Below are positions 921 to 56,432 of a stretch of DNA of 64,000 bases, in pieces. Both the position numbers and the translations under genes were made by a program. The number at the start of each line of letters is the position of its first letter. Within the stretch, counting starts at the first letter, position 1. The notes beneath the pieces were generated by a model. The model did no database searches. It was given only the letters and a program-made list of their open reading frames with translations, and was not told the origin of the DNA. The DNA is taken from assembly GCA_010909165.1 (NCBI GenBank), contig MU008188.1, forward strand, positions 62,001 through 126,000. Reading direction: 5' to 3'. The stretch comes from Anthoceros angustus. Taxonomy: Eukaryota; Plantae; Anthocerotophyta.

Positions 921-3900
921 TGTGGCGCGACCGAGGACCAGGCGCACAATCCCGTGTGGTTGTAGCAAAGGGTCCGTTCCCGAGAGAATGATAGGCTCCG
1001 TTTGGCACGTTTTCAACCGATTCTCACCTCAACGTAGTGACCATTCGGACTCAAGCGCGCGCGTCCGCAGTTTTACGAATAACTACTCTCACGTTCACCA
1101 AACAGGCCCGGTGTGGCCAAATGTTTAAGGACTCGTTCGCGTCCGTATCCTATCAATTCGTTCCTTGTTCGTCTAATCCGTTCTCCTCGCCTCTCTCTCT
1201 ACACTCACCATTCTTTGGAAAAGAGTGGGTGGGCTGCGGGTCGGATCTCTTAAAATGCGTTATCTTGGTCTCCGTCCGGGCTCTACACGCCTCCGGAGTT
1301 CCTTGACTCGCCATCGTCGTTCCCACCGTCGGTCCTTTGCCTGGAAGGCGAGGTCTTTGATCGCCCACCCACGCACACACCACCACACGTTAGGGCCCGT
1401 CACGGGACCTTGATCAATCGCTCCGGTCATGCACGCCTCGATGACTCGGGACTCACGTTGCAAAAGACGACAAGGGTCTACAAGGAAAGCAGCGGTATCC
1501 ACCCCAAGAAAAAGATGCTTTACTAGAGCAGCCGCCCCTCTTATACTACATCGAGCGGCTTTATTACACTCCTATTACATTTTGTTGCCCCATTCGATTA
1601 ATATAATCGACCGCCTACTACCTCCCCCTCTTCCGCCTATCTCCTTCGCCTGCGGCGGCTGAGGAGTGCTCTTGGTTCTGCCTTGGCACTGGTGGCCCAA
1701 TCCTCGGCCACGGCAGTTCAGGCACCTAATCGGATGATCCGGCGGCGGCCCTTCCCTTCGAGACACAGCCGAGGTTCGGCTCACGGTGGCGGTTTGACAA
1801 CGCGGTAACCACCACATCCTCCTCTCCACTGCCCCCAGTGGGTCCACCGCCTGGGACCACCAGGAGTGTTGCTCACTTTGCAAGTCGGTGGTAGTCCCCT
1901 CACCTCCCGAGTCCGGGACCGGGTCCACTGGGCACTGGGGTCCGATCCTCGGGGTTGGCCTTATTTGAGTCCGGACCTGTGGTCCGTCTGAGGTTCGGAC
2001 CTCGGGTCCGACCTTTCACTCACTCGGGGTCCATCCCCACTCACCGGACCCCCCTCCTAGCTCGGGTCTTGCTGGTCTTCAGCCTTCCCCCTTTGGGGCC
2101 CTCGTCCTTCCCTGAGGAGGGTTCTGCTTACCTCAGGCCTGTATGGTACCAAGGCCTGCCTCACGCTCCTCTCCGCCTTCCATGCTGCCCCCGAACACGC
2201 CACCAAGGCCCGTGGCAGGTGCTATCCCAGACCCTTCTTCTCCTCCCCTCCTTCCGATCTCCTCAGGAAATCAATTTGTGGTTGATGCAAGACCTCAAGG
2301 CTTTGAGGAGCGTGGTAGTAGGCAAAGTCCGAGTGACTTGTTGGATTACCTCTTCCACATGGGCCCAGTGCAGGTACTCCTTCGCAGTAGGTACTCCCGG
2401 CGGTTAGGCGTCTTTGCAAACTGGCCTGCCTCCATCGCCATCGGACTGAGCTGGGCCGGAATCTCTTGAGGCCACCAAGGAGGCCTCATACTTCCTCGCA
2501 GCCTCGCCTCTCGCTTACTCCATCTCCCCTCCGCTTCGCACCTCAACACTGGCATGGCAGCGCCCCTCCGCCTTCCTCAACATTTGGACCAGCAGGCTTC
2601 TTCTTCCGCCTGTGGCCCTCGCTCCTCCATTCATCCACGGCAGAGCTCGCATCTCTCTTCCTGGGTGGTCCGGCAACGGTCCCTTGCCTCGCCCAAGTTC
2701 TTCTCCAGGTGTCTCGGCCATGACACTTCACGCACATGGACGAGTCCGGGGCTCGAGACATCGGGTGCATTTCTCGCACATCGACCATGCACTACGCTTA
2801 TACGAGACTCAACGAATATGCATTGCTATACATAAGAACGGTCCGAACACGGCCACAATGGGTCTATTGTGGTGAAAGCCTTGCCTTGAGTGATTAGGTC
2901 GCGACATGATGAATGCATTCATCATATGCATGTAAAGGACGATGTCTGCGCGTGGAAAGACCGCATTGAACCCGCAATTGTAAATAGATTCCGGATGGTG
3001 TCCGAAAGACCGTATGAAGTTGAGATTCTATCGATTTCGGGCATTGCAACCTCGGGTCAGACCTAATGGATTCATACCATTCGCATTCATGGATGTCCAA
3101 CAAGTATAGTACAAGTCGCTCCTTTTCTCGTCAATCTACTGGACCCTTAAACTCATTTTGTGGACCTTTTTTAATATCCATTTGTGTACTATAAATTGCA
3201 TGTATTCTTAAAGAATTGGCAGTTGATTCATGAGAACTTGGAGGAGTGTAGACCATGTGAAGGTCTTATTACCTTAAAACCATTGAAATGCATGGTTTCA
3301 TTCTTAAAGTCACATCTTTATCATGCAATTTTTTTAAAAAAATTCTGCAAATTATGAAATTCAGGCTTTTTTGTTTCCAGGCCCCAAATTTCACCCCTCC
3401 AAACCAGAAACGAGGAGCCGTCTCCTAGTCTTAGGAGACCTTGTTGGTCCGAAATTTGGGTAGCGCTTGGTGACAATGTTCCGTTCCACCAAGCGCCAGG
3501 GCTCCCACACTTCCGCCACCTTCTTGGGCCCCATTGCTGTGCTCCTCTTGTTATGCTGTTGGGGGTTGAGGCTCAGCAATTCTCCGTCCTCACGGTCATT
3601 GCGTACGGTCGCTCCGCTGGAGATGAGCCGCCGAAGGGTGCGCGCTTGAAGAGACAACGCTGAGAGCAGGTGGTGTCGAGGCCGAGAACCTCATGCGAGT
3701 CGCTTTAGAAGAATGACTCGCCAGGGCTGCAGCGTCGAGAGTAAATCAAAGCTGGAGGGCGCCCTTCACGCCTGAATCACAAAGGCACCATGGCTTTCTC
3801 TAGTTTGTACGCTGGCCGATCACAGACGCTTTTACTGGCACTGCATTTCTGAGCGTGAATACCGCTATAACGCACGGGCAACCCTACTTAGCCTCGGGTC

Positions 3901-4232
3901 CGCTGCATGCTGCCCACCTCAAGACTGGCCCACGTGGCCCCTCCTGCCAAAATACGCTCCCTGCTCCAAAGTTCCTTTCCTTGACATACTTATCGCGACT
4001 TACTCCGGAGTGCAGTCCGGACTTACCATGGTTTACTCAGTGTGCCTCAGTATCCGCTGTGAAAAGGTCCTAGCCACTCCGGGAGTGCAGTCCGAGTCTC
4101 TCCTACTCAGGATGCAGCTGGAGTTACTCCGGCCTTATTTCTTCCTTTTCGCCTTATTTCCCACTCCACACTTACGAAAAAAAACAAAACCTAGCTTATT
4201 CCCTGCCCAAGGGGAAGAGCCCATAGCCCACA
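921..4232 (-). repeat. 5' LTR of Gypsy element A (about 3.3 kb including an about 0.5 kb insert)
   Basis: On the minus strand it begins TGTGG at 4232, similar to the post-PPT LTR start at 15116. It ends GTCGCGCCACA at 921, the same terminus as the LTR end at 9893. It shares the TATA-region block with 9300-9500 and 40370-40580. It abuts and truncates a protease ORF at 4233. Confidence 0.75.
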
Positions 4233-6150: not shown

Positions 6151-6530
6151 TGGCTAGATCAAACCCTTAATCAAGGTTAACACACCCCGCTATCTTAGAT
6201 CGATCGTGATTAGTGAAACCTCTAAGTATCTATGCATGTTAAATTGCATACAAATACTCTGCATGAATGTGAGCTGGGTGAGTTGGATAGCAAAGGCATA
6301 AGAACTCGAGTTAAGCACCCGTGGGTGGATCGATTACACGGATGGGGTGCCCAGGAGTTTTGGACGAAAGTGAAATCAAATGGACTGATGACATACCCAT
6401 GTCCCACTCTCCCTTATCCCTTGGAATCCGGGCCCAAGTAAAATACTCTTGTTTCTCCCTTGGTTGGTTGGCCTTAAAAGGCCAGCCCCCAGAGCCTCAT
6501 TCCTCTCTCTCCTTGGTATGGGCTTCTTGC

Positions 6531-6665
6531 CTCCTCTCCTTGGCCTTGGACTTGGGCTTCTTCGCCTCCTCTCCTTGGCCTTGGACTTGGGCTTCTTCGC
6601 CTCCTCTCCTTGGCCTTGGACTTGGGCTTCTTCTCCTCTCCTTGGCCTTGGACTTGGGCTTCTTC
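6531..6665. repeat. Tandem repeat, about 4 copies of a 33-35 bp unit (CTCCTCTCCTTGGCCTTGGACTTGGGCTTCTTCGC)
   Basis: Copies at 6531-6565, 6566-6600, 6601-6633 and 6634-6665. Related diverged copies at about 16545-16625. Confidence 0.9.
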
Positions 6666-6849
6666 ACCGCGATCATGCCGACCGGGAGGCAAGGGGTCGG
6701 CTCGAACCCCTCACCTCCGAGCCCCAGGGACCAAGAGGGCAAATAAGGAATTGCGGCAAGAGGGCCAAGGAGGGTGAAGCTCGGGAGCTCACAATCGTGA
6801 CCTAAGGGGCCGATTAGTCAGAGAACCCAGTCGGGACTTACTCGGGATG

Positions 6850-9800
6850 TGATCCTTGGTATGGACCGTGAGGATGCCCGCCCCACTCACGGACTTCTTG
6901 GGGTCTCACTGGCGGCCGTGGAAGAGACACGGGTCCTCACATCATGGATTCGGTATGCTTTGGGGTCTCGCGGACGAAGACCCGAAGTAAAGCCACCAGA
7001 GGCGCATGGTGCTCCTCCGTGAGGCTTGGAGGCAAGGAGGAGCGCTCTCGGCCGCATCAAAGAAGGGAAACGGAGGCCGAGAGGAAGTCTCGTCCCATTG
7101 ACAGACTGACTAAATTCCTTCACTAGGTGGCGGTGAAGCGAGCCTGGGAGGCCCAAGCACGGGTGAAGACCTCTGCGGGAGAGGAGTAGCCAGGAGGCGT
7201 AGGAGGCCGGCGCAAGCGGAGAAGGCTCGTGACTTGGGCGAGGCCCGGCTGGACCAGCGCCAAGTGGGCGTGACCAGTGGAAGAAGTGAGGAGGCGGAGG
7301 AAGTCTAAGATCGGACCCGATCACTATCGGCGTGATCGGAACCGTGGAGGGAGACCGAGGGGATAGGTGGCTAACAGAAGGAGGAGGCGGCGGGAGTGCG
7401 GCCATGCGAGAGAAGGAAGCCGCTGCAAGGAGATGGAGGATCTCCAGGTCTGGAGCGTGAAGTGGATGGCGGAGATGGAAGACGCAGGAGACTCGAGCTG
7501 CGGCTCAAGTTACCATTGAGAGGAATGGTAATGCGGGCGTGATCTCGGATCACGAGCGAGAAATAGAGCGGCTCACTCTGTGGCGGACGGAGGAAGTGAG
7601 GCGATGGAACAGAGCCGGGGCGTCGCCGAAATGGAAGGACGTGAAGCCTGCAGAGTTGCCCGGCCACTTTGGAGAGAGGAGATGGGCGGGCTAACGGCGA
7701 AATAAAGCGGGGAGGCGAGAGCACAGGGGCAGAAAGAAGGCTGGTCAGGTTAAGGAAGGTGAAGGGAGCGCTATGGCCGATGGTCGGAAAGCAGGCGGAG
7801 CGAAACGGAGCTGGAGCAAAGCGGACAGCCCCGGCGATTCAGGAGGTGGCAGGCAGCCCATGGCCTCACGAGATCGGCCCGGCTCCGGCTAACGAACTGG
7901 CAGAGGGATGGTCCAAAAGCCGACAAGACACGCTCGACTCCGAGCACCAATGGCGAAGGGGTATCGGGTGCTCCACATGTGGAAGAGCAATCCAACAAAT
8001 TGACTCGGTTTGCCTACTACTACGAGCTCCTTAAGGCATTGGAAGTCTCTGACGCCGCTACACGACGGACCCTGAGGGTCGAGGGAAGGGATGAAGGGCA
8101 TGGGGACAGACGGGACCCTAGTGGCCCGCTTGGAGGCGATGGTGGCGGGGAGAAGACGAGGAGGAGGAGCGGGACGCGCCAATACAACGAATCCCAGGGT
8201 AAGTCGGCTGCAACCTGCTCGGGAAGAGAGACGGCGGCCCCAGAGGGTGGAAGGAGGAAGCCAAGGCCAAGACAGAGGAGTCGGTGGAAGGGATGAGGAC
8301 CCTAGCAGAAGGGGTCCAGAGATAAAGGGGTCCGAGCTTGGGGACCCGACCCCGTGTGGTTGAGACCGAGGTCCCAAACCCGATGAGACCGAGACCCAGT
8401 GACCGGACTTAGAATAAGGCGAGACTCCCAAAGTTCGGACTTCCGGAGTCGAGACGGGGTCCTGACTCACCTAGACTAGAGAGGTGTTTCACCACGTCAA
8501 ATCTCTGAAGATCCTACTTATTTTCCTGGCTTTTTCTTTCCTTGCTCTTGTGGCCTTTAGTCTTGGTTTCCTGCTGATCACCTCCTTTGTTACACCAGAA
8601 ACTTTAACTACATTCCACACGCCTGATCCTATTCGATACATCTTCGGGTAAATGCATGACGCTTACTGCGGCGAAGCATCTGTGTCAGTCTTTTAGCCAC
8701 CAAATAGAATAGGAGACGAGAGGGCAGTTATAGTGTGTCATAGTCTTGGGGTTTTCCAGCATACAGTGGTGTTATAAGAGATGCTTTTGAAAGCACCCCG
8801 GCAATGGCCGAATCCCAAGATTCTCTTCTCAGTCTGCCATGGAGATGGCTTTAATCTAAAACCAGATGAGTGATCCCAATCTCAAGTAGTTCGTTTGGTA
8901 TATGGATTTTCTGCAGCCAGACAGAGGTAGGAGTCCCCAGGTCTAAACCTATGGCCCTTTGGCCCTTATTTATTTTATATTTATTCTACAAGGGTATACT
9001 TTCAACTATTTGGAAAATTTCGGACAAGCAAGGAGGAGTCCCCTCCGACTTACTGGGAGAGCAGTCAGTGGCCGGAGGGACCGGGGCGGGGACGATGTTG
9101 TGGTGCCGGTCGTCAGACCCGGCCGCCGAACTCTGTGATTCCGGAAGAGGAAGGGACAGCCGCGATCATCCGATTGGTGTACAGACGACGGAGATTGGAC
9201 CACCAATCCGGGGCGAACCAGGACCTTCCAGCCGCCGTGAGAAGGAGATAGGAGGAGGAATAGGATGGTAGGCGGCGATTAGGGGTGTCTTGCTGCCACC
9301 ATTTCGGAATAGTGTAATAAAGGCGACTTGGGCGTGGTATAAGAGAATTTGAGGCTGCTGAATAAATCATCTTCTCTTGGTGTTGATGCGCGTTCTTGCG
9401 AGACCTGTGTCTCTTCCTTGCGTGAGTCACGAGTCAGCGACGAGCGGCTCAGGCCAGTCAAGGTCTGTGGCGGACCCTAACGTGTGGTGGTGTGTGCGGG
9501 GAAGGGTGGCGGGACCGTGTTCGTCGAGCGGCAGTGACGTCGAGCAGGGCCGGAGCGTGTGGAGCGGAGGAACTCCGGGAGGCGTGAGCCGGACGGAGGC
9601 CAGTGAGCAGCGGAGGTCGGGTGTAGCCACTGCGTTCTTTTCAAGGTTGATGAGTGGAGTGGGAGTGATGAGGGACTAAAGGGTGAGTGCGGCGAGCAAT
9701 CGGACAGGTCCTTAAGCGTTTAGCCACACGGGCTGTCTGGTGAACGTTATATGAGTAGTTAGGCAAAAGTGTGTGTTAGTGAGCGGGCAAAGTAAGGAGT

Positions 9801-9893
9801 CGGCTGCAAGCGGAGCTATCATTCTCTTGAGCGGACTCCTTCCTACAACGACACGGATTGTCTTGCGGTGGCCATCGTAGAAGTCGCGCCACA
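6850..9893 (+). repeat. 5' LTR of Gypsy element B (5'-truncated; left boundary approximate)
   Basis: Ends GTCGCGCCACA at 9893, directly followed by a PBS-like TTTTGGCGC. TATAAG at 9338-9343. Homologous to the LTR A and element E LTR blocks. Confidence 0.7.
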
Positions 9894-9910
9894 TTTTGGC
9901 GCGAGCGGGA
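9894..9910 (+). promoter_or_regulatory. Primer-binding-site-like sequence of element B
   Basis: CA|TTTTGGCGCGAGCGGGA junction, the pattern typical of Athila/Tat-clade LTR/PBS boundaries. Confidence 0.65.
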
Positions 9911-12900
9911 ATGAGATCGTTCGTTCCGTAGGAAGGTGCGTGGAGGGCGTGAGGTAGAGAAGAGTTCTTGAGTGAGTCGGACGTTGGGCCCGGGCGCTCG
10001 GCGCGGGCACGTGAAGCGGCGGGCTCGGCGAGACCTCCAGGTGGCGTGGTGGGACTTGTCGGATCGTGAGGAGGAAGTAGCACCAAGTCGAGGCGGTGGT
10101 AAGAGGCGGTTCCTCAACCCTTGCCGATCAGCGGCGATGGCAACAACGTCGACCAAGCAAGCGTATTCCCTCTTTGGAGGTAAGAAGGAGAGCGAAACCT
10201 TCGTGGAGGATTTGTGTATCGCGGGCAAACTTCAGCGGAGAAGGTTCGGATCGCGACTCATCCAGTGTTCCAAGGGGTCTCGAGGACTGACTCGGTATCG
10301 GAGAAATGCGCCTGAGCGCTCCCCCAACCTTGAAGCATTGAAGGATGCCTTCTTAGAAAGATTGGAATCGATCAAGAACTCGTCTTGTCAAACTCGAGAA
10401 CGCGAGGCAAGGCGGCGGAGATCGTATCGCCGAGCGGTTCTCGCTCTTGGGACGGCACCCCACCCACACCACCATGCGGTGATGCGTTGGTTGGTGGCTT
10501 ATCAAGCCAATGGCTAAGCACGTCTTTCTTTGGCGAAGAAGGATGTGAGCAAGGCGGTCGGCGGCGGAGAACTATGAAGAATCGATGCTGCGAGGCCAGG
10601 GCGCCTCGGAGGAAGAAGAAAGAAGAAGCGGGGTCGGACTCGAGATGAAGAACCCTCGGAAGAGGATGATGAGGCGAGGGCATCGGAGGAAGAGGAAGAG
10701 GACTCAGAAGAAGAATCAGGGATGGGGAAGAAGAACCCGGAAGAAATAAGAAGAAAAGCCCGTAGTCGGTGGAGGGGAGAAGGAGGTCATGATGCACCAG
10801 TGAGAGGTCCACTGACTCCTTTGAAGGAAGTAGCGGGGGTTGAGGAAGATCTAGAGCAGGTAATGAAGAGGGTGGAGGTTGATCAACCAAGTGAAGGATA
10901 AAGAGCGTAAGGCGGCCACCGCAGTCCGGACTCATACATGGTGTGCGGTGTGTCACCAACATGGGCATTCGAGGCTAGCGCCTCGGACCCGTGAACCGGT
11001 GGAGTGACTACGGGAAGAGTCAGGAGCGTGGGAGGATGCATACCAAGTGCAAGAAGCACCACGGGCGCGGTATCCCGGCGATGTACCACGGTGGTCCATC
11101 GTGCATCGACCTCCGTCTGACACATGGGAGCCCCTCCGAATTCTCGGCGGCGGTGGTCTGCTGGGCATGGGAACCCGGCACTACTCCAACGTGTCCATAC
11201 CCCACTCGGCAAGGCAGGGGACTTTGAGCGCTGTGTGGAGATTGTGGCGGGCGGGGCACATGGCGGCGGTACCTTGTGTCAGAATCCTCGTTCGAGGGCG
11301 GCGCTCGCCACCCGGCGGGGAGCCGCACCTCGCCTCCCTCCTAAGGCTGCGCCCGTGCTACAGATTGAAGGCCTGGTGGCGGAGTGGGAAGGCGGGAACT
11401 TGGAGCAGTGGTGCAAGCGAGTTCGGCTAAGGAGAAGAGGCGGACACAGGTCTTGGAAGTGTCAACCGCGCGAAAGGAGGCGAAAGGAGAGGAGCAGTTT
11501 AAGAGGAAGAAAATGATAGTCCACGGATACGGAGGGCAGGACACTGAAGGAAGCTCCGCCAAGGAAGGCGAGTTAAATCAGGCTACGCGGAAGGCGAAAC
11601 CAAAACCCCGGAAATGTTAGGAAGCGGACTCACCCAACACCGATTCCACGGATGTGGTTGAAGTGGCGGAGATGCTTGAGGAAGAACTCGGCGGGACCCA
11701 GTGGTCCGACCACCACAGGCGGTGGCGGAGCTGGAAGGTCAAGCGGGCAGCGTGTGAGAAGCCACCGCCTTTCAAGGTGGCCGACTTGATGATGGATCAA
11801 CAACACTTGGTGTCCCTTAGGCAGTTGTTAAAGACAACCCAGTATCGGAAGTCAGGAGGCCATCGAGGAGACACAACCGCGAAACTCCTTGGGAAGGAAA
11901 CGTGGAGGTAAGTAGTATCTCATACGGACCGGGCGCCGATGGTTCGTAGAAATTGCGGGTGTGTGATTAGAAGCTGGACACGGGTCGAGTGAACCTCATC
12001 ACGGAGGCCCGCAAGGCGGTTGGGGTTCACCACCTTGAGCCATCCACCAAAACCCTCGGGATGGCGGACATGTCGCGTGGCGCCGGTGAGTTGTCGGGTC
12101 AAGCCACCATAAGCGGGAGCACCCTATACATTGGACTTGTGGTCATCGGACCGGACCTCACAGGGGTACGAGGGTCTTGGGGCGACCAGGTGGGACTCGC
12201 TCGAGACAAAACTACACTTGGAAGGAAGGAGATACACTTCAAGCCGTGGCGGATCAGAAGGTGAGGGGAAGGACGGTGGCGACAGGAGTAAGGACACATC
12301 TTTGTGGTGAAATAAGCACCACGGAGGGTACACCTCCGAAGGCAGTGGGGATGAGCGGATACGAATGAGGACTACCCTTTCCAAAAATCGTGGTCAGAAG
12401 AAGATGGACTACGGAGGGACACTTTGGAGGCGGAGGTGTCGATTGCTTAGTGGTGAAGACTCGGAGGAGGAGGAAAAAGGAACCGGATGGAGGACCCAGA
12501 AAGACAGTTCACCTCGACGAGCTCTTGGGAATGGGGAATGCGTGAAGATGAACCCGGATGGAGGATGATGGCTTTGGGCGTGGCAGCGGCGAGGAAAGAG
12601 GCGGTCAATCGATGATGTGGAAGGCGTGGAGGTTCGCCGGGAAATTCCATTCCGCAGGCATGGGGCGGAGTTGACCCTCACCGGTGTTGGGGAATTTAGT
12701 GAGGTGTTTGCTTTCAAGGTCACGGACATGAAGGGCATTAAAGCGATGGGGCGAACAGGATAGATGAAGCCGGGGAGGCTGCACGGATTAATATAAGCTG
12801 AATCCCAAGCACTCGCTCAAGGTCAAGGAGTCTGGATAAATCTGAGGCGGACATCATCTTCCCAATCGTGAGCAGCGAATGGGTGGCGCCCATTGTTGTA

Positions 12901-15115
12901 AGAAAAGCGAAGGGCGGTCAGTATGCATCGGGGAGAAAGCTCCGCCGCCCGGAAGGACCATTTTCCCATGCCCTTTGTAGGCGACATCTTGGACAAGGTG
13001 GCGGGGACGGAGTACCTACTCCTTCTTGGATGGCTACTCGGCTACAACCAGCGCACCTAAGGGAGTGGGATAAGACAATTCACCGGAGTGGGGGCGTTTG
13101 CCTACAAGCAGCGCCTTGGGATGGCAGGAGCACCGGATCATTTATGCGGATGGTGACCAACGTCTTAGGATTTTGAGGACTTCATGGAGGTGTTCTTGGG
13201 CGACTTTGCGTGCGGAGGAGGACAAACACGTTGGACATCTGCGGAAGTGCTTGGAGCGACTGTGTGCACATCAGAATGCTACTTGGTATGCGGAGGGAAT
13301 CTTGTTGGGACAGCGTGTCGGGAGAGGATAGAGGTGGATCAAGACAAGGTGAAGGTCATCATCCTGCGGCCGCCTCACGAACTTGAAGGAGTTCTGAGTT
13401 CACAGGCATGGTGGGTTACTATAGGCGTTTCATCCAAGACTTTCAAAGCGGGCCCAAGCTAGCTACTCGGGAAGGAGGAGAATGGCACTGGACACCAGAA
13501 AGGGAGGCATTCGAGACCTACAAACCACTCGATCGGTGCCCAGATTGAAAGGTGGGAGGGAAGCGATTCCATGTGTATGTGGATGTGTCGGCCTTTGCCA
13601 TTGGGTGTGCTCGGCCAAAAGGGCGACAAGCGGAGGATCATCAATCTACTGGCGGAAGAAGGCGGCTCACGCGGAGCGGTACACTACTACGGGCGTTGGG
13701 GATGGTATCTGATTAAGAAATTCGACATTACCTTCGCCCAATGAGTTTGTGTTTTATGTTGATCACTTGGCTCAAGCATTTGGTGAACAAAAGCGGACTT
13801 GTCCGGGCGGTGCGAGGTGGATTACAGCTGAGGAGTTCACATTTGAGGTGGAGACGGGCGGCGGCACCAGCGACTTCTTGTCTTGTCAGTTAAAGCGGGC
13901 ACATCTGCAAGATCGGGAGGGCGCCTTCCGGATGAGGAATTGGTGGCGGCGATAGAGGAAGAGTGCGGTAGGACAAACCCTGAAATGGCGGACCACCGGC
14001 GGAGAAGGAGGCGGGCCGGGGGCCCTCTTATGGAGTTGGAGCAGTACCTATGGGAGATGGGAACTAAGCGGATTGGCGGGTCGAGCCTTTGTGCACTCAC
14101 TGCCCTTTTTAGGTTGTATAACGCATCTTTAAGGTGGGGGACGTGGAGCAGGTACCTCCAGCAGTGAGGCGGAGGTGGTAATAAAGGGATGCACGAAGGA
14201 CGGTGGACATTATCGTAAGTCACCACCAAGAAAATCTTGGAGGCTGAATGCGGTGGCCCACCATGTATGGAAACACACCAATTGTGAAGAGTGTGATGCT
14301 TGTCGTGGATCGGGCGGCCCACAACAATGGCCGTTGGTGCCCCATGGCACTACGCCTTTTGAGAAGTGGGGCATCGACTTGGACCTATCGATAGGACACA
14401 CACAGCGGTACATCTTGGTGGCAGCGGACTCGCACCGGTGGGTGGCGGTCGCTACTAGCGGACTCTGCACGGTGGCCAAATTCCTCTCTGAAAACATCAT
14501 CACAAAATGGGTGTCGTTGCGGTGAGCGATGGGGATTTCCTCAATGATGTGATAGCGCAATGACGGACTATTTTGGCATCACACATAAGCGGCCCCTAGG
14601 CCAGCTTGTGGAGAAGACCAGCTTATGCATCTCAATAAACTACGGTTAACTATGCTCGGGATACAAAGCTACCATCGGTAGCTATGGGCCTTGAGCGGCG
14701 AAGGTAACCGAACTCCGTATTACACCTATGGGCACTCACCCGTTATGCGGTGAGTTTGAGGTGCCAACACTCATCATGATGGAGAGGCGCTTAACGGATG
14801 AGAGCCAAGCTGGGCGCTTGCTAGGGTTTGTTCGCATCTGGAGGGTCGGGAAGAGCGCGCGGATGCAAGCAGTGAGAATCAGCAAGTTGTGCAGGAGGCT
14901 CGAGTATGTGAAGGAGGAGATTTGGCCCTTCTTTATGACGCCGCCATATGCACTTCGGGTAAACTCCACCTTGATGGATGGGACCTTACCAAGTGGTATG
15001 TCATATGGGTCAGTTCAACCCGGCGGTTGGATGGTGGTGCCCACTCGGGTGAGCAGGTGGCGGTGAAAAAGTATCATGCCTAGTGTTGGCGGGCGTAGCG
15101 GATGAGAAGGGAGTA
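9911..15115 (+). mobile_element. Ty3/Gypsy element B internal region: degenerate gag-protease-RT-RNaseH-integrase plus PPT
   Basis: gag at about 9972-11620. Protease VEIAGC..LDTG..VNLITE at about 11930-12010. RT KDHFPMPFVGDILDKVAG..DGYSGYNQ at about 12955-13050 and MEVFLGDF at 13184. RNaseH at about 13450-13960. Integrase PFEKWGID at about 14355 with a GPY-like tail to 15083. PPT GATGAGAAGGGAGTA at 15101-15115. Many frameshifts. Confidence 0.9.
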
Positions 15116-16540
15116 TGTGGACTACGGACTTCCCTTGGGGGTTAGAAATAAGTGGGTTTTGTTTTTTCGTAGGTTGAATAGTAAAATAAAGGCGGAAAAG
15201 GAGGAATAAGCGGATGGTGCTCGGGGCACTCGGAGTATACTCCGGACTCGGGAGTGACCCGGGCTATGAGCTGGGACTACATGGGAGTAGCAGGATAAGT
15301 CCGGACCCACTCAGGGTCAAGCAGGATAAATGCGCCGAAGTAATTTAAGTTGAGTCGTGAGGGACGGACTAAGCGGCGCCACGTGGGGCGGCCGAGTGGA
15401 GGTCGGGCATCGGCAGCGGGGCCTAACCTTGCGAGTTATAGCGGTATTCACGCCCAGGGCGCGGCGTAAGGCAGCTGCAGCGTAAGGCGCTGCAGCGGGC
15501 GTAAGGTCGAGTAAGCCATGCAGACCTGGCGATTCAGACGGGAAGAGGCACCTTCCGCCCAGTTACTCAGCAGCCGAAGAGGTCATTTCTGTGCGACCTC
15601 GAGACAATTCTCGCGATCTCTTGCGCTCATAACCCGGCTCTCTGGCGCTATCTCTTTGAATGCTCGGGCATCTTGGCGCGCGGCTCACGTTGGGGTTGGG
15701 CGGCGGCGAGAGGCGCATCGTGCCGGCGGTCTCCAGCGGCTCTGACGAAGGGAGAAGATGGCACCCAAAAACTGCGGAAGTTTGGGAGCCATGGAACCTG
15801 AGGCGCAACATTGTGACAGCTATCGGACTTTGGGCCATGGAGGCGGGAGGATTAGTCGAGAGTGGCATAGGCGTGTTCGGTATGCGGGCGTTTGGCGTCA
15901 CTCTGGTCGGAGATCGCCCGGGAAGATGTTGGCGGCGGCCAAGGAGTTCGATCCAAGAACCTCGGGAGGATCGATGGACCTTGGAGGTCACGAGGCGGCC
16001 TACAACCCAGCGGAGGATGGGGGCGTGGTCGAGCCCCTCAAGGCGAAGATAGAGGCGGCAAGGGCGGCGTCTGAGGCCGGAGCGGCGGACAACCAGGTGG
16101 TTGATATCGGACTGGACAGTGAGTGGCTGGCCGGATCATCGTCCACGGAACTTGCTCGGGTGGATCACCTTGGTGATAATTTCTTGTGTTCTGCATGCGT
16201 TGCGGCGTGGGGAAGAGGCGGATGAGGAAGGATCATCTTGGGATTCGTGAGGCCTGAGAGAAGCCCTCGGCTCGGACTATCCCCATACCGATCCATGTAT
16301 GGGGACATTACAACTTCAAGGATGGGGAGATAGAGCGGCGCTCGGAAAGGTTGGCCCTACCGAGCGGTGAGCAGGCGCGGGGAGAGGCCCACAGGGCCAA
16401 ACGGTCGAGGAGAGGACGATCGGGAAGGATATCGGACTCCATACGTGAGCGGGCCTCACCACCTGTGGGAAGATATCCCGCTTCCTCCTCTTAAACTCAT
16501 GGGCGAGAGATCTGGACGAGGAGGCAGGCTGCCACAATCT
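15116..16540 (+). repeat. 3' LTR of element B (5' half only, truncated near 16540)
   Basis: Starts TGTGG immediately after the PPT. Homologous to the reverse complement of 3400-4232 and 24700-25668. Confidence 0.75.
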
Positions 16541-17769
16541 AAACAGAGGATTGGACTTGGGCTTGCCGCCTCCTCTCCTTGGCCTTGAATTGGGCTTCTT
16601 CGCCTTCTCTCCTTGGCCTTGACTTGGTCCCCTCTAGTCCTCAAGCCTTGGGACTGGGCCTCCTGGCCTTGGGCCCCTCCTAGGCCTCAAGCCGGGGCAC
16701 ACTTTAGAGAGTCCCTTGCCCACTTGTTTAAAGAGCTAGGTCGCCGCCTAGCACGGCCTAGCACGCTTAAGGTCGCTTAGCATCACCTAAGATCGCCTAG
16801 CCACCTAGCATCGCCTAGCATCACACTGCTTCAGCACTACTTACCCAGTGCACACACGGATCATAGCTTGTAACAACAGGAGGAGTAGTCATGACCGGGC
16901 ACAAACACACCTCCCCACGAGAACAACACACAAATTCCTCACACATTGCTCCTGAGTCATGGCTTGGCCTCCTCATAACACCCTTGCATCAGATATCTAG
17001 AGGACAAGCCACATCCGAGCTTGTCCTTAAGGGTTTGTATACTAGCCGCCTCGCATCGGCATATTCCTAAGATATCCTATTGGCATCAAAGATACGCTCG
17101 GAAATATCCTAAGAATACACTATAATATGCAAGGAATATGCTAAATCATATTACTTGAGCTTATCCAAGCTAGCTATTGTATCCTAAGAATACACTATAA
17201 TAAGGAATATGCCAAAGCATATTACTTGAGCTTATCCACTTATATATTACTAACCATGTTTAATTAACACTAATCAATGCTTAATGAACATAAGCACCTT
17301 TTGAATTAATACTAATTACTTACTTAAAGATAAGTAATTAGATTAATTAATGATAATCAAACACTAAACCCAAGTGCAGAGATTAGTATCACACGACATG
17401 ACATCGAGGAGTTCCCTTGTGATGCGGAGCTCCTCCCTAAGTCCTCTAGCCACGTTATCCCATTCCTGCTTCTCACTTGCTAGACCATCGGATTTCCCTT
17501 TGTAATACTCCTTCCGTTTGTCCATGGCTAGCAATCTCTTCTGTAGGAGGTCCTTTTCATCTTCAAGGTCATTCCGGCCTTCGGCTTTGGTAGTAGCCTC
17601 CTTCTCTCAATTCACCTCTCCTACCCTTTTAGGGCCGTTCTCAAACGTTCCTCCACACGATTCTTGGTGGCTTCCATTTCTTTAGCCTTCTTGGTGGGCT
17701 TCCCTAAGACTTGGTGTATCATCTCCCACACTTTGACCAATCGTGCGCCCAATGGAGTGACGCCGCACT

Positions 17770-18110: not shown

Positions 18111-19037
18111 CCTCGTATTAGAGAGGAATTGCTGTAGCCACTAATGAGGAGCTTCCTAGAGAAAATCTTAGTGATCAATGGTCTGCAAGAATCCCTGGAG
18201 CTGCCTAGTTGAGGTGGGCCTACGGGATATTTGAGGACGAGAGTAAGGGCTTTGAGGGGGATCATTGAGTTTATGGTACGGCACAAGCCTTGTATTGAGA
18301 GAGCTGTGGAGAGCCTAGCTAGTGAGTTTGTTGCTGAGTGAAGGGCAGTAGCCAATTGGGTGTAGATAGCCAGACTCAAGTGTGTATTCTATGAATAAAG
18401 AGTAGCACCTTGAGGAGGTGGCCTACGAGTCGTCGATGGACAGCGGGCTACTTGGAGCCTAGTGTTGCGTCTTGAGATTGAGAGCTCTGAAAGTTGTGCA
18501 AGTTTCTCGGTGGAGTGATTGACGAAGTCCTAAGACCGTTGGAAGCCAGCACTTACCGCTTCCTTACCGGCTGCCTAGTGAGGGGCGTTAAAGGTAGTGA
18601 GTAAAGTATTCAGTGATTGCCCACGGAGTTGAATAAGCTAGATATTCAGATTTCTTTATGGCAGTCTCTACTTTTCCTGCCTGTATTTAGCAAGAGCGTC
18701 GATCTACCCCGATTGCGTTGTGTGTCATAGCTTGCTTTGACCAAGGGAGGGCACTCGGAATGAATGTGGTACTTGAGTTTTTAGGTGGCGAGCTATTCAG
18801 TAGAGGTAAAAACAATGGGCTTCACTTGTTGGCATCGTCGTTTTGTCTCTCTGCGCGTGATTCTCTGCACAGAGTTGGCTGGGCAAGCCCTGTGCGCCCT
18901 TCCACGCCTGCGAAGCCTGTGATGGATCTGTCGCTCTGTTGAATCGAAATTCGCTATCTGAATAGTTTAGAAACCACAGTGCGATGGGTTTCCGGTCCTT
19001 ACATTACGGATAAAGGTCCTTGGACTTGAGGACCAGG

Positions 19038-22000
19038 ATGTGGGAACTGCTATTTCGGCATACCGTTCATCGGTCCGCTGATTGCACTGGATGTAACTGT
19101 AGTAGACCGCTTGTTGGTGGCTATGTTGTCGAGAATAATCGCCAGCTCAGCACCGGAAGGTTGGCCGCAAAATGGTGGGGACGCTCGAGCAGCAGTTTAG
19201 TCCGCCCCACGACGGTGTTCGCCAGTCAGGGCCGAAGATTTGGGAAAATGTGGTGGTACAACCAATTACTGGTCCTATGGTTTATTGTGGGGTTCTGCAG
19301 CTCTGTGTTCTTGTATCATCATCTCGATACTTCAAATCTGGAGCGCCGACAGGAGACTCTCTCAAGTATGTGCGATGAACGGGCCCGGATGCTGCAAGAT
19401 CAATTTGTTGCAAGTATGAATCACGTCCGAGCGCTTACAGCACTGGTCACTACCTTTCATCTTGAAAAACAGCCATCAGCATTAGACCAGGTGAGAATTG
19501 TATCAGCTAGGTTCGTCTCCTGCTGTCGATAACACGAAATTGGGTACCTACTCAGACAACGTGCATTTTGGACTTTACTGAGAATTGGCCAAGGGCTCCT
19601 CAGTTCTCAACTTCCCTGATACGGTCTCGCTTGTGTTGTTGCGTTTGCGCAGAAAACTTTTGCTACCTACGCTGCCAGGACAGCGTGTGAACGGCCACTT
19701 ATGAGTGGAGTAGCGTATGCGCAAAAAGTGCTTCATCAGGAAAGAGAGGCTTTTGAAAAGGAGCAAGGGTGGAGTATTAGAAAGATGCACTCCAGGGACT
19801 GGCAGCTTGTAGAAGATGAGTATGCGCCTGCTACCCTGACACAGGATACAGTTGGGTATTTGACATCGCTAGACCTCATGTCGGGCCAGGTAATATACTT
19901 CTGAGTGGTTCGTAGTCGGCTCCTTGAGGTTCTGGCCAACCATCTTATGATAACACGTTATCATGGTTATGTAGGAGGATAGGGAAAATATCTTACGTGC
20001 CAGAGCGTCAGGCAAGGGTGCATTGACAAGTCCCTTCAGGCTTCTTACAAACCACTTGGGGATTGTATTTACTTTCGCTGTGTATACGGACGATCTCCCT
20101 CCAGATGCCACCCCTGAACATCGGATTGCACATTGTGCTGGGTAGGTGCTTTGTCCACTTATAACACAAGGATGCCTAATGTGCGCATGTAGACAGAACT
20201 TTTCTTCTATGACTCAGCACATCAAGCACTTCGTTTTCCACTGTGCTAGAGGTCACAATTGTGTTCGGTGAATGTTGCAGCTATCTTGGTGGGGCATTTG
20301 ATGTGGAGTCCCTAGTGGAAAAGTTACTGCGGCAGCTTGCTGGAAGTTCCACAATTGTGGTTAACGTTTATGACACTACCAACCATTCACTTCCACTTGT
20401 CATGTATGGATCCTCTCCTGACAATGAGAACCACTACGTTAGCAGCTTGGACTTCGGAGATCCTTTACGAAAGCATGAAATGCGATGCAGGTAAGTATGG
20501 TGAAAGAAGCCTGTAGATTTATTACAGTTCTGTCTGGATAATTGACCCTGCGTCACTGTACAGGTTTGTGGACCCACGACCTGTGCCATGGTCAGCCGTA
20601 TGGGCATCTGTTGGGCTTTTTGTAATCTTCCTGCTACTTGGTCAAATCGGGTTTGCAGCTTTGCGAAGAATTTCCCAGGTGGAGGAGGACTATAAGAAGA
20701 TGGAAGAATTGAAGCTACGAGCAGAATCTGCTGATGTTGCTAAGTCTCAGGTGAGGTGCATCCACTCAGTCCACATGTGTTGCTTTTATAGTTGCGGTGC
20801 TGACTCTCAACATGTTTTACTCTTGCCTGATGTGGGCTACTGTGCTGAACCTTATGCAGTTTCTTGCAACAGTCTCCCATGAAATTCGCACTCCAATGAA
20901 CGGAGTACTTGGTAAGCAGAGCGAAAACTGAGTGTCTTGTTTGACCTCTTGAGTAGCTTGGTGATAGTCAATCAGTGATAAGACCTAAAAGGCTGCATGT
21001 TGTACAGGCATGCTGCAGATGCTTATGGACACAAGTCTAGATTCGACTCAGATGGATTATGCGAGAACAGCTCAAGCTAGTGGGCAGGCATTGATCACTC
21101 TTATAAATGAGGTTCTGGATCAAGCGAAGATTGAATCTGGACGGCTTGAACTCGAGGCTGTCCCTTTTGATTTAAGTGCCATTCTTGATGACGTTGTGTC
21201 TTTGTTTTCATCCAAGTCACGCGACAAGCACCTTGAGGTTCTTCCTCACTCTACTTGTTTGGAGGACATAAACTTTTGTTATGTGGGTTTCCTTGAAGTC
21301 TTTTGAGCTTGCACGTGCCTCTGATTTTTTCCTGGACCGTTTGCAAGCTATTGATGGAGTGAATGCTTATTTTAAAGTGTGGTTGGTGTGTGAGCAGCTT
21401 GCGGTCTTTGTTTCGGACAGGGTGCCTCAGATGTTGGTAGGAGATCCAGGCCGGTTCCGACAGATTATCACTAATCTAGTGGGGAACTCTATAAAGGTCA
21501 GTGGTTGTTCGGATGGCCATCTTCGGTTTGATTGTGGTGATGTTGTGCACTTGTGTATGTCTGAAAAAGTAGCTAGTAGGCCGGCTATGTGTTGACTCAG
21601 TTGTTTAACCTCATAACTGGGTCACTCGGCCAGACTCTGTTGAATCATCGTAGGTGCGCCACATTGGTCTAGGTGTCGAGCTCCCTTGATCTTTGAGACC
21701 ATCACCCAATTAGCCTGCTGGGACCTTTCTGCTTACTATTTTTCAGAGGATGCTAACATTTTTTGTCATTAGTGGACCAAACTTAAGATTCTAGGTCTAT
21801 GGTTGTGCGCTTTCGGGAGATACTGCTTTGCATACAGGCCTTCACTGCATCGTTTCTCTTAGGCCCAAAATGGGAACTAAGGGAGTTGATTACGCTAGAG
21901 GTGATTAGAAATGACTGACGCAACTTGCATGCAGTTCACCGGACGTGGACACATTTTCCTTTGTGTGCACTTAGCTGAAGATATGGATACGGTGATGGAG

Positions 22001-23794
22001 GCATTGGAGCATGATAGCACCAGTCTCTGTTGTGAAGAGGGTACAGACGGTGTAATCCGAAAGTCTTGTGACTCGCTCAGTGGGTTTGAAGCTGCAGATG
22101 GCCGAAATTGTTGGAACACATTCAACCTCCTGCTACAGAAAGGGGGCTCATCGAGGGCAATCACAGATACATCTGGTAGTTCAGATGATAAAGTCACCTT
22201 GTTTGTTAGTGTGGAAGACACTGGTGTGGGGATTCCTCTTCATGCGCAGGAACGTGTGTTCACTCCCTTTATGCAAGCAGACAGCTCGACGTCACGCACG
22301 TATGGAGGAACGGGGATTGGACTGAGTATCAGCAGATGCCTTGTCGAATTGATGAGCGGCGAGATGAGCTTCATCAGCCAACCAGGAGTTGGAACAACGT
22401 TCACATTTACTGCAGGCTCAAAGGCAGCATCTGGCATGCATGAGGGCTTGAGGTACCCATTGCAGGTTTCAAACCAATTCACGGGTAAAAGAGCTCTTGT
22501 TGTGATGGAGGCCTGTCCGGCACATGTGACTCAGCAGCACTTGCGGCGGCTGGGAGTTCAGTGGATATAACCATATTCCCTCTGCCATGTCGTTCTTCAC
22601 GTGGCAAGCAGACATTGTATCATCAACAAACAGTCGGTATGCCATTACATATCCTAAGTAGGCTCTTTCCTTTGCTGTTTGCATGCCGTATTGCCAGCAT
22701 AGATCTTCAAACTGAGGACAGCTTTTTTGTTCTGATACAAGGTGGAGACTGTGTGTAGATAGTTACATTCCCAAGTGCAATCGAGTGTGTGGAACTTGAC
22801 TCTTTACGACCTTGTTCTTTGCCTTATTCTCTTTCAGGTCAACAAGCACTGTCGATATGGTTCTGGTTGACAAAGATTCCTTTGGTCCTGGTACTGGCCT
22901 TTCTTTTCCTCGACATATTCTACTATCAAATTTTAGGTCTGGGTCGTCTGTCAAACTGCCTGTCCTTATTCTTGTTGCCACCTCACTCACTGATGAGGAG
23001 CTACAACACGCAAGACGGGCTGGATATGAAGACTTTGTTATTCGAAAGCCTCTGCGGGCGAGCATGCTTGCTACCAGTCTTGAGCTGGCTTTAGGATTGC
23101 TCAGCAAGGGTGACCAAGGGAGGGAGCTCTCTCAAAGTTTCCTAGCTCTTCAGAAACTTCTTTCTGGAAAATGTATTCTGGTGGTGGATGATAACATAGT
23201 CAATCGCAGAGTAGCTGGAGGGACACTCTCGAAGTATGGAGCCAAAGTTGAATGTGCTGAAAGTGGGAAGGCTGCAATCAAGATGCTTCAACCACCCCAT
23301 GACTTTGATGCCTGCTTTATGGATGTTCAAATGCCTGAGATGGATGGGTAAAATCACGAGCCTCCTTTTTGCTAGGCGATTAAGTCGTCATTGTTTTGCC
23401 ATTTCCAAGGCTGTCATCCAATTCCAGCTGTGAAGCTAGTTCACATCATCCAGCTGATTATATTTTGAGATTGTTCGGTTTCTAGCTTATATCTGGGCTG
23501 ACATAGCCGGCTTGTTTCTCATCTTGTGATCGCATGTGCAGTTTCGAAGCCACGAGACACATTCGTAAGGCGGAGTGGGCAATCATGCAAGGACTCACTA
23601 GTGAGATGAATGGAAACATAGTGCGGAAGTCTGATACATGGCATACACCGATACTGGCAATGACTGCTGATGTAATACAAGCCACACATGAGGAATGCTT
23701 GCGCTCTGGTATGGATGGCTATGTTGCTAAGCCTTTTGACGAGGACCAGCTGTTTAAAGCCGTATCACAGTTTTTTCAATCTTCCAAAGTGTGA
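19038..23794 (+). CDS. CHK: CHASE-domain hybrid histidine kinase, cytokinin receptor (CRE1/AHK2-4 family)
   Basis: Spliced model with GT-AG introns and consistent phases. Exons: 19038-19490, 19653-19889, 19975-20141, 20281-20490, 20564-20750, 20860-20911, 21008-21237, 21398-21496, 21935-22636, 22838-23347, 23542-23794. Features include a TM segment, CHASE ([34 protein letters not shown]), H-box [10 protein letters not shown], HATPase ([26 protein letters not shown]), a receiver-like domain (VDMVLVDKD) and a receiver ([21 protein letters not shown]). The start codon is uncertain, and exon 9 has apparent frameshifts near 22500-22580. Confidence 0.95.
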
Positions 23795-24599: not shown

Positions 24600-25668
24600 G
24601 CGATATATGACCTATGCCTACCCCACGCCATCATTTATTAGGTCAGACGCTACGAATATCTAAGAGAGCCTGTTTCGCCCTGCTCACTTATGAAGTGAGC
24701 ACCAAAGTATGCTTGCAACCCCAAAGTCGGGTGGTATATCCCGGTGACAATGTTGCGGCCCAAGCGCCACATTGCCCCTCCCACTACCGCCTTCGGGTCC
24801 CATCGCCGCTCTTTCTTCGCTTTACCGGCCGCTGGCGATCATTGTGTCGTAATACCCATCGCCTGGCTGCCGCTTTGCCGCTTGTCATTCCAACCATGAC
24901 TAATGAGCCGAGCTGCTGTGAGAGTGCTCGGAAAGGACCAAAAGATAGCGCTAAAGAGCCGGTGTGATCTGGAGCGCGAGACTACGAAACCGGCCGCGAG
25001 GTCACGAAAATTTTCCCTAAAAACGGCTCCTTCCGCGACGCTCGGGAGAAGCTGGCCGAGCTGGGAGGGTGTCTCTTCGCGCCCAGAATCGCTGAGGTCC
25101 GCATGGCCGATTCATTCTCACCTGGCACGCCCGCGCTTACTCGCCTTACGCCGCCACGCGATTTAGCCTTTACGCCGGGCTGCGGCTGCACTCCGAGCGT
25201 GAATACCGCCTATAATCTGCCCACTCCGGCAGCCCTATGGTCCTAGTCTCACGCCGCATGCCACTGCTCACCTCTCGCACTGCCCCACATGGGCCCCTGC
25301 CTCGCCTAAAATACGCCCAACTCCTAAGTTACTTTACATTTTTATGCATATCTATCCCCGCCCCTACTCCCGTGGAGAGCGTGGTCCTGATTTCACACCG
25401 GATCTGAGTGTGGTCCGGACTACCCCATGCATCTGAGTGTGGTCCCTGGATTGCGCCCCAAGAGACCCGGAGGTGGTCCGGACCTCCCCTCGTAATGTAG
25501 TCCCGAGGCTCCTCCCGAGTGTGCTCAAGTCCTTTAGCCTACTCCAAAGTGCACTCCGGAGTATTCCGAACTTATTTCTTCTTTTCCGCCTCATTTTCCG
25601 CTCCACGCCTACGAAAAACAAAAAAACCTGACCCATTTCCTACCTAGAGGGAGAGTCCATGGTCCACA
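24600..25668 (-). repeat. LTR fragment (5' part) of the A/B Gypsy family
   Basis: Minus-strand start TGTGGACC at 25668. Homologous to 3750-4232 and 15116-15600. Contains a third copy of the W(R/N)LxRNIVT motif at about 24743-24770. Confidence 0.75.
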
Positions 25669-33694: not shown

Positions 33695-34377
33695 NNNNNN
33701 NNNNNNNNNNNNNNNNNNNNNNNNNNNNNNNNNNNNNNNNNNNNNNNNNNNNNNNNNNNNNNNNNNNNNNNNNNNNNNNNNNNNNNNNNNNNNNNNNNNN
33801 NNNNNNNNNNNNNNNNNNNNNNNNNNNNNNNNNNNNNNNNNNNNNNNNNNNNNNNNNNNNNNNNNNNNNNNNNNNNNNNNNNNNNNNNNNNNNNNNNNNN
33901 NNNNNNNNNNNNNNNNNNNNNNNNNNNNNNNNNNNNNNNNNNNNNNNNNNNNNNNNNNNNNNNNNNNNNNNNNNNNNNNNNNNNNNNNNNNNNNNNNNNN
34001 NNNNNNNNNNNNNNNNNNNNNNNNNNNNNNNNNNNNNNNNNNNNNNNNNNNNNNNNNNNNNNNNNNNNNNNNNNNNNNNNNNNNNNNNNNNNNNNNNNNN
34101 NNNNNNNNNNNNNNNNNNNNNNNNNNNNNNNNNNNNNNNNNNNNNNNNNNNNNNNNNNNNNNNNNNNNNNNNNNNNNNNNNNNNNNNNNNNNNNNNNNNN
34201 NNNNNNNNNNNNNNNNNNNNNNNNNNNNNNNNNNNNNNNNNNNNNNNNNNNNNNNNNNNNNNNNNNNNNNNNNNNNNNNNNNNNNNNNNNNNNNNNNNNN
34301 NNNNNNNNNNNNNNNNNNNNNNNNNNNNNNNNNNNNNNNNNNNNNNNNNNNNNNNNNNNNNNNNNNNNNNNNNNNNN
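33695..34377. other. Assembly gap (683 N)
   Basis: Run of N. ORFs spanning it are artefacts. Confidence 1.
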
Positions 34378-39400: not shown

Positions 39401-40858
39401 CTGCTTGTATGGTAATCGCATGTTTTTGATTTCCCTTGGCTCAATGGCGAACATGGCGATGGAGACGGGCCGGCAAAGACGGCCACCGCTGAGCACCTAT
39501 GGCGAAGGGAGTCGGTGCTCCGGGCGCATGTGGAAGAGGCAATCCACCAAGTCGACTCGGACTTTGCCTACTACCATGCTGAGCTCCTCAAAGCTTTGGA
39601 GGTTCCGCGTCACCCACGACAACTGGACTGACCTCCGGAGGGATCAGAAGGAGGGGGAGGAGAAGAAGGGCCCGGGGACAGCACCGGGGCCTTGGTGGCG
39701 TTGTTCGAGGACGACGGCAGCGGTGGAGAGGAGCCCTAGGAGGAGCATAACGGCGTGGCGACGGGGCATGAGGTGGCCGGCGCAACCTCGGGGAGAATAG
39801 GGCATTCCGAAGAGCGGAGGAAGGAGACGACAATCAGGACCCGGGCCGGGAGGGGTGTCCGGTGAGTGGGAATGGACCCCCAGAAGTCCAAGAACCGGGG
39901 AGTCCGAGACTTGAGGTCCGGACCCGTGTCTTCTCAGACTCGAGGTCCGAAAACCGAGCAAGGAGACCGAACCCCGAGGTCCAGACTGTAAAAGGACCCC
40001 GAGGATCGGACCCCGGAGTCGAGACCGGACCCCGAGGTCCGGACTCAGGAGGAGAGGGGGAGTCACCACCGGCTTGCTCAGGCGGAGCAGTCACCTAGTA
40101 GTCCACAGCGTGAGGAACGGCCGTGGAGAGGAGGATGTGGTGGTTACCGCGGTTGTCATACCGCCGCCGGTAGCCCAACCTGACAGGGTCTCGGGAAGGG
40201 GAAGGGGCCCCGCCTCGCGAATCATCCGATTAGGTCTTGTAGCTGCCGAAATTGGTCATCGGGCGCCAAGGCGGAACCAAGGGCACTCCCAGGCCCACCG
40301 CCGACGATGGAGATAGGCAGAAGAGGGGAAGATAGTAGGCGTGGCTAGGGCACCGAGGGGCAACCACCGTAATAGGAGTGTAATAAAGACGCCGCCCTTG
40401 GGCGTAGTATAAGAGGGCCGGAGCTGCTCTAGTAAAGCATCTTTTTCTTGGGGTGGATACCGCGTTTCCTTGTAGACCCTTGTGCGTCTTTTGCTAATGT
40501 GAGTCCTGAGTCACTGAGCAGGCACGACAACCCCGGAGAGACTGATTAAGGTCCTGGTGATGGACCCTAATGTGTGGTGGTGTGAGCAGGGTGGACGATC
40601 AGAGACCCTTGCTCTTCCAGAGCAGCGGCCCGACGTTGGACGGACCGGAACGCATGAGCTGGGGAACTCTGGGAGGGCGTGTAGAGCCCGGACGGAGAGG
40701 TCTGGCGGAATGACGGAGGAGGTCCGGACCACGCAGCCAACCCACTCTTTTTTCAAGAGCGATGAGTGTATTGAGAGTGGTGAGGAGAACGGACTAGACG
40801 AGGAATGTGATCGATAGGGTAGACGGAGCGAATCTAGTCCTTAGCGTTGGCCACCGGC
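36401..40858 (+). mobile_element. Gypsy element E (A/B-related): gag, zinc knuckles and protease joined directly to the 3' part of an LTR; RT/RH/INT deleted
   Basis: gag DWEALKAAFLNRF...RESLFDYVERF (37069-37608). CYNCGAPGHYSNECP and CQVCKELGH (37601-38467). Protease VPLDSGSGVNLM (38876-39415). DSDFAYYHAELLKALEV at 39526-39603. LTR TATA block at 40370-40580. Confidence 0.8.
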
Positions 40859-52230: not shown

Positions 52231-52457
52231 GAGGCTATCATGGCCGGGGATTTGGTTCTTCTATATGATGGTCGTTACATGGATTTCCCAGGGAAGCTTA
52301 GGACCGTATCAGGTGGTGGCAGTGTATGAGAATGGATCCGTGCAAACACGAGTGCTGGATGGGGATTTGCTACCAACTAGAGTGAATGGGTGGAAGGTTA
52401 AGAAGCACCTTCACCCGAGATGCTGTTTGCAGGACGCAAACAGTGAGGAGGGGAGTA

Positions 52458-56427: not shown

Positions 56428-56432
56428 ATCTT

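Follow-up and report, generated by a model that had tools for sequence, protein, structure and literature searches.

A candidate protein-coding sequence in the U3 region of a Ty3/gypsy-type LTR family in land-plant DNA

Results

Five pieces of one LTR family lie in the window

The window (the whole 64-kb stretch of DNA analyzed) is land-plant DNA, as judged with the exons of a histidine kinase gene at 19014–23794. This gene, at 19.0–23.8 kb, has short introns and open exons, lies amid nested retroelement pieces, and is one that we take to be cytokinin-receptor-like from its motifs. Our sample consists of the window, with five LTR copies of one family (L1–L5), and contig tables of one DNA run. 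The family and its parts are arranged as follows.

1388..4232, minus strand: L1, a 5' LTR with both ends present, broken by foreign DNA and followed by a PBS-like site and gag
6680..9482, plus strand: L2, the 3' part of a 5' LTR, with alignment to L1 from ~7655
15116..16550, plus strand: L3, the 5' part of a 3' LTR, with ~790 nt beyond the block-1 ATG
24715..25668, minus strand: L4, the 5' part of an LTR, ending just past block 1
39453..40572, plus strand: L5, the 3' part of a 5' LTR
9483..15115, plus strand: internal region with leader, gag, protease, RT, RNase H, and integrase, and many frameshifts
~15100–15113, plus strand: purine tract before L3
1538..1545, minus strand: TATA box of the element; also at 9338 (plus) and 40408 (plus)
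1376..1387, minus strand: PBS-like site; also at 9483 (plus) and 40573 (plus)
2790..3440, no strand assigned: foreign, AT-richer DNA replacing the middle of the L1 U3, with a short hairpin at its start
8470–9021: high-copy insert of 550 nt in L2

The LTR begins with TGTGG at 4232 (minus strand) in L1, 15116 (plus) in L3, and 25668 (minus) in L4. Identity over the 60 nt on each side of this start was 0.33–0.36 upstream and 0.67–0.74 downstream in all three pairs of these copies; the integrase stop and the purine tract lie upstream of L3, and unrelated DNA lies upstream of L1 and L4. Toward the other end, L1, L2, and L5 all carry TATAAGAG (the TATA box), then 147–167 nt, and then the PBS-like TGG site, which is present in all three copies with an LTR 3' end. 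The termini are TG at the start (3/3) and CG, CG, and TG, not CA, on the PBS side (positions 1388, 9482, and 40572 in L1, L2, and L5), and a short GGTCC...GGACC inverted repeat precedes this non-CA end at the PBS-like site. No tRNA genes were found in the 64-kb window. L1 is assembled at 2845 nt, foreign piece included, and the native LTR would measure ~2.5–3.7 kb.

The foreign piece in L1 (~650 nt, GC 0.41 versus 0.60) does not align to any other copy, L2 and L3 included. Directly after block 1 in both L1 (3420–3440) and L4 (~24680–24700), a short perfect hairpin opens the foreign DNA; presumably these hairpins could be Helitron-like ends. The high-copy insert in L2 has a summed contig depth, which does not equal copy number, of ~2000 in run X1 (a DNA run with a share of words of 0.11, possibly from a relative) and 22900 in run X2. 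Run X3, which may be DNA, matched only in short pieces. The L2 segment at 6680–7655 is probably U3.

L2, the internal region, and L3 form a unit (6680–16550) in which both LTRs are cut at their outer ends and share no overlap, and the same tandem array of another element flanks the unit on both sides (6519–6648 and 16558–16687). Two deletions might have produced this unit, or it might be a DNA copy that was captured, end-trimmed or permuted. No insertion in the window retains both outer ends, where a target-site duplication would lie.

The internal region has the order gag-protease-RT-RNase H-integrase, which is the Gypsy order, in motifs read by eye. The RT matched another RT in the window by tblastx (E = 6.5e-4), while none of 34 pol fragments gave a pol family in Pfam, a scan with little power here. 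The integrase frame stops ~35 nt before the LTR with the polypurine tract inside those ~35 nt, so there is no space for an ORF between pol and the LTR; nor is there a chromodomain after the integrase. An additional RNase H, a Tat clade feature, was not seen by eye in the ~330 nt between the RNase H and integrase motifs. By these motifs the element appears to be a Ty3/gypsy-type LTR retrotransposon.

Other repeats share the window. Another Gypsy family is represented at 37042–39415 by a gag (Retrotrans_gag, zinc knuckle) and a protease, which are nearly in frame and are cut off beside L5. Two 4-kb direct repeats (43749–47767 and 52458–56433, 89%) differ by 97 gap events versus 265 substitutions, which may be assembly error; considered as family members, they were rejected as another family with no coding signal. 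There is also a tandem of pol-like DNA (49537–52233, 1.35 kb, 91%) and an assembly gap of 683 N at 33695–34377.

Two peptide blocks recur inside U3

Two short peptide-like blocks had been described in these LTRs by a first-pass annotation of the sequence.

3445..3534, minus strand: block 1 in L1, an ATG and 30 open codons
15758..15838, plus strand: block 1 in L3, with two short gaps relative to L1
24803–24715, minus strand: block 1 in L4
2286..2361, minus strand: block 2 in L1, frameshifted
7976..8050, plus strand: block 2 in L2, frameshifted
39527–39607, plus strand: block 2 in L5, open

We recovered block 1 where the annotation had placed it, at 3534 (minus), 15758 (plus), and 24803 (minus), and likewise block 2 at 7976 (plus) and 2361 (minus); block 2 is also present in L5, but it starts at 39527 (plus) and not at 39526. 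All five LTR copies hold a block, and only L1 holds both. The ATG of block 1 had been put 640–870 bp into the LTR and indeed lies 698 (L1), 642 (L3), and 865 nt (L4) from its start, with a purine at –3 and G at +4 in all three copies. The placement of the blocks between the TG start and the TATA box also held, with block 2 sitting 811–881 nt upstream of TATAAGAG, and at the 5' end the shared TGTGG boundary rules out a location beyond the LTR. Because this start is shared (L1, L3, and L4) and the TATA box and PBS-like site lie downstream (L1, L2, and L5), both blocks are inside U3.

Differences within the blocks follow a coding pattern

The blocks were chosen by eye for their protein-like look. 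For pN/pS, each block was read in the frame of whichever copy stays open across it, the frame of block 1 being set by its ATG. Pooled pN/pS in these frames was 0.27 (0.20, 0.50, 0.39, and 0.10 in the four pairs), and the eight other-frame readings gave 0.73–2.8. A permutation that kept substitution types gave p = 0.004 for L1/L3, 0.30 for L1/L4, 0.58 for L5/L1, and 0.09 for L5/L2, so that one pair of four is significant alone. The differences had been said to be dominated by third-position synonymous changes; third positions do account for 25 of 44 differences over the four pairs, but synonymous dominance was overstated, as 17 differing codons are synonymous and 18 non-synonymous.

A phase-tolerant score on the sense strand reached z = 4.1 for block 1 and 2.2 for block 2 (the pairs are not independent), compared to 5.0 and 4.5 for the gag and RT controls. 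By the same score there was no significant antisense signal, no significant sense signal in any of eight other LTR and leader segments, and no coding signal in the 5' U3, R/U5, or leader, nor in 244 columns upstream or 358 columns downstream of block 2. A family-wise sliding-window test over every 90-column window was passed by none of the four LTR pairs (p = 0.53–0.98; gag control p = 0.007), and a best-phase block test, which has little power, returned only the block 2 core (p = 0.024) and gag (p = 0.013). The coding signal is limited to ~55 codons. Of the earlier proposal of several hundred residues under purifying selection, a likely coding origin survives, whereas the extent and the selection along it are not supported, given a signal of only ~55 codons, blank flanks around block 2, and the failed family-wise test. 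We consider a coding origin of both blocks quite probable; the window alone makes coding likely, not certain.

Protein searches with the single in-frame stretch of block 1 and with that of block 2 found no homologue, and 70 of 70 U3 fragments had no Pfam match above the cut-off, TRP28 and similar domains included; these searches were without power. The element's own integrase stretch found no homologue in a protein search, and its pol fragments none either, so the blanks for the blocks carry no weight. Matches of a block-1 motif scan (two metagenome, one viral) were set aside as chance, and the one viral-contig match to an integrase scan (18 residues) proved unrelated by tblastx. When the 159-codon stop-free stretch of L3 was folded as a single sequence, the pLDDT was 49.5.

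No copy carries one open frame through both blocks

None of the five copies has a continuous ORF through both blocks. The protein-coding ORF annotated at 2150..3534 does not stand, since frameshifts and ~650 nt of foreign DNA (~2790–3440) break it. On the sense strand, the U3 pieces stay free of stops for at most 177 codons, short of the open frame of 250 or more codons that marks a plant aORF/eORF. Assembly errors may be the reason for these short open stretches: contigs listed over the high-copy insert differ from the window by gaps, without substitutions (for example, 2 gaps in 304 letters and 5 gaps in 76 letters), which makes it likely that repeats in the assembly carry indel errors, and frameshifts are therefore weak evidence of decay.

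The extents of the partial copies bear on how far apart the blocks natively lie. L2 aligns to L1 from 7655 (score 110 versus a null maximum of 56), and L3 retains family sequence to at least 16337. The tail of L3 against the head of L2 was unconvincing (score 47 versus a null maximum of 46), and the middle pieces of these two copies do not align to one another. From the extents of L3 (to 16337) and L2 (from 7655), the native distance between the blocks is estimated at ~0.9–2.1 kb, which would correspond to ~350–750 codons if one frame runs through. We lean toward both blocks belonging to one such long ORF.

The blocks could instead be what is left of a sequence that formerly coded for protein, or they could be short ORFs or exons separate from each other, with no long protein maintained now. 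This would fit a signal confined to ~55 codons with none in the block-2 flanks, and the lack of a continuous frame in five of five copies. However, assembly error accounts for at least part of the frameshifts, the extra ORFs known from plant elements evolve rapidly except in short motifs according to excerpts of two papers (PMC6317226; PMC3485330), and block 1 is among the deepest U3 spots in run X1, unlike a neutral relic. We regard this explanation as unlikely.

Depth in run X1 has one peak at the start of the LTR (1124) and another over block 1 (2400), where the next bins outside are only 0–63 and the value just right of the block is 63. The matches of 15 X1 contigs end just before the block-1 ATG. 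Farther into U3, depth is 565 at 15946–16001 and 480 at 16282–16337. At both spots where L3 falls short of the open frame of L1, the deep X1 contigs are longer than L3, and those two breaks therefore belong to the L3 copy or its assembly. We count the peak over block 1, the contig ends before its ATG, the longer contigs at the L3 breaks, and the coverage farther into U3 in favor of the proposed gene.

Such a peak could also mark a cis-acting site at block 1, either an RNA hairpin or an attachment site in the middle of the LTR, as in split-repeat Gypsy elements, with the codon pattern arising by chance. Besides the very high X1 depth, L1 and L4 end within a few nucleotides of the same point just past block 1, block 1 has folding z values of –1.8 (L1) and –2.4 (L4), the PBS-side LTR end is not CA in three of three copies, and L2 and L3 share no sequence although they stand on either side of a single internal region. 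Against a site at this point, L3 continues past where L1 and L4 end, and the drop in X1 depth to 63 just right of block 1 means that the site is not conserved on both sides. A hairpin is further disfavored because L3 does not fold (z –0.7) and those of L1 and L4 pair differently. The split-repeat version is disfavored too: L1 and L4 start at TGTGG with foreign DNA upstream, where an A-ORFs-B-A-B layout needs the other LTR half, and L1 is a whole LTR followed by the PBS and gag. A cis-acting site at block 1 is, overall, quite unlikely.

A possible accessory gene with its own promoter

Upstream of the block-1 ATG, the three copies keep a CACGTG-type box (exact in two of three) and a pyrimidine patch, and L1, L3, and L4 have a TTATA box with a 13-nt invariant tail 317–406 nt before the ATG.

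3853..3865, minus strand: conserved promoter-like box (a putative role) after TTATA, 331 nt before the L1 block-1 ATG; also at 15441–15453 (plus) and 25197–25209 (minus)

These boxes may be an internal promoter, an assignment for and against which we see the case as evenly balanced. Counting against the proposed gene, other ATGs follow the TTATA box before that of block 1 is reached (two in L1, two in L3, and several in L4).

We propose that blocks 1 and 2 likely belong to one accessory gene, block 1 as its start and block 2 as a late helix. A promoter of its own, within the first 640–870 nt of the LTR, would drive transcription of this gene, and the transcript would presumably end at the R region of the element. 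Reverse transcription would give each LTR a copy of a unit placed in U3, and the unit would persist in solo LTRs. The product would likely be a nuclear regulator of the element: its basic start and charged stretches suggest this by analogy to Grande gene23 and Retand TRP28. Vicient and Casacuberta (PMC7264820, as excerpted) offer a precedent in Grande gene23, an additional ORF that has a promoter of its own and whose product is nuclear. By analogy only, a regulatory or counter-silencing role of the protein, the latter also suggested by the first-pass annotation (as anti-silencing), is possible, falling somewhat short of an even call, and the mechanism as a whole (a self-contained accessory gene in U3 with its own promoter, encoding a nuclear regulator) strikes us as no less plausible than implausible.

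A real gene might instead depend for its expression on the 3' LTR alone, by way of an RNA spliced from a donor in U5 to an acceptor near the LTR start, like retroviral 3' genes. GTGAGT occurs in U5 of all three copies and a T-tract with AG ~55 nt into the LTR in two of three; but the U5 motif is a tandem GAGTCA, which could be a factor-binding site, R/U5 is conserved anyway, and from the LTR start onward 6–15 other ATGs come before that of block 1. Splicing is reported for barley Bagy2 (PMC7264820, as excerpted), and we judge this route rather improbable here.

Discussion

Plant LTRs are treated as non-coding, and surveys, in the portions available, put extra ORFs between the LTRs (PMC7264820; PMC6317226). 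In the excerpts, the extra ORFs of plant Ty3/gypsy elements (Athila and Bagy2 env-like, Grande gene23, Retand TRP28, and rice Retrosat2 ORF0) are found either upstream of gag or in the stretch from pol to the 3' LTR, and many are antisense (PMC7264820; PMC6317226; PMC11963269; PMC3485330). Among these, as the excerpts have it, the Retand ORFs run antisense between pol and the LTR (PMC11963269), and rice Retrosat2 ORF0 lies upstream of gag-pol (PMC3485330). The candidate sequence described here would resemble plant aORF/eORF in being extra, fast-evolving coding sequence without database relatives that is kept across copies. It differs in lying on the sense strand inside U3, with pol abutting the purine tract, whereas theirs are in the internal region. 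In phrase searches of mostly open-access literature, no title or abstract reported an ORF inside a plant retrotransposon LTR, and element tables in supplements could hold a precedent.

If the proposal is true, the U3 gene is doubled at each replication and outlasts solo-LTR formation. Solo-LTR formation is thought to be the main route by which hosts delete such elements. Solo LTRs would then be possible protein sources.

KnitGypsy-Dnmt3, a split-repeat Gypsy element of Klebsormidium nitens (PMC5890265, as excerpted), shares the Gypsy domain order, and the element here also has an odd LTR end. The A-ORFs-B-A-B layout is, however, not found, as two copies start at a normal LTR edge with foreign DNA upstream. 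Protease and RT are separated by ~540 nt, too little for a methyltransferase domain of the KnitGypsy-Dnmt3 type, and no Dnmt3 domain was found in pol by eye or by Pfam (a scan with little power).

A further likeness in layout is to retroviral U3 genes. HIV nef and foamy virus bel2 overlap U3. Compared to these and to MMTV sag, the host here is a plant, there is no env, and the likeness is of layout, none of sequence being expected. MMTV sag lies in the 3' LTR (PMC11569226, as excerpted), and like it the blocks would be coding sequence on the sense strand of U3 that is doubled into the two LTRs; block 1 in L3 matches the sag-like position, sense and within a 3' LTR. We tentatively suggest that a non-seed-plant Gypsy lineage may have moved an accessory gene of no known protein family wholly into U3 with its own promoter, such that every LTR, solo LTRs included, might supply a regulatory or counter-silencing protein in trans. 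Plants would thereby have reached a sag-like layout independently, a testable convergence with the U3 genes of retroviruses.
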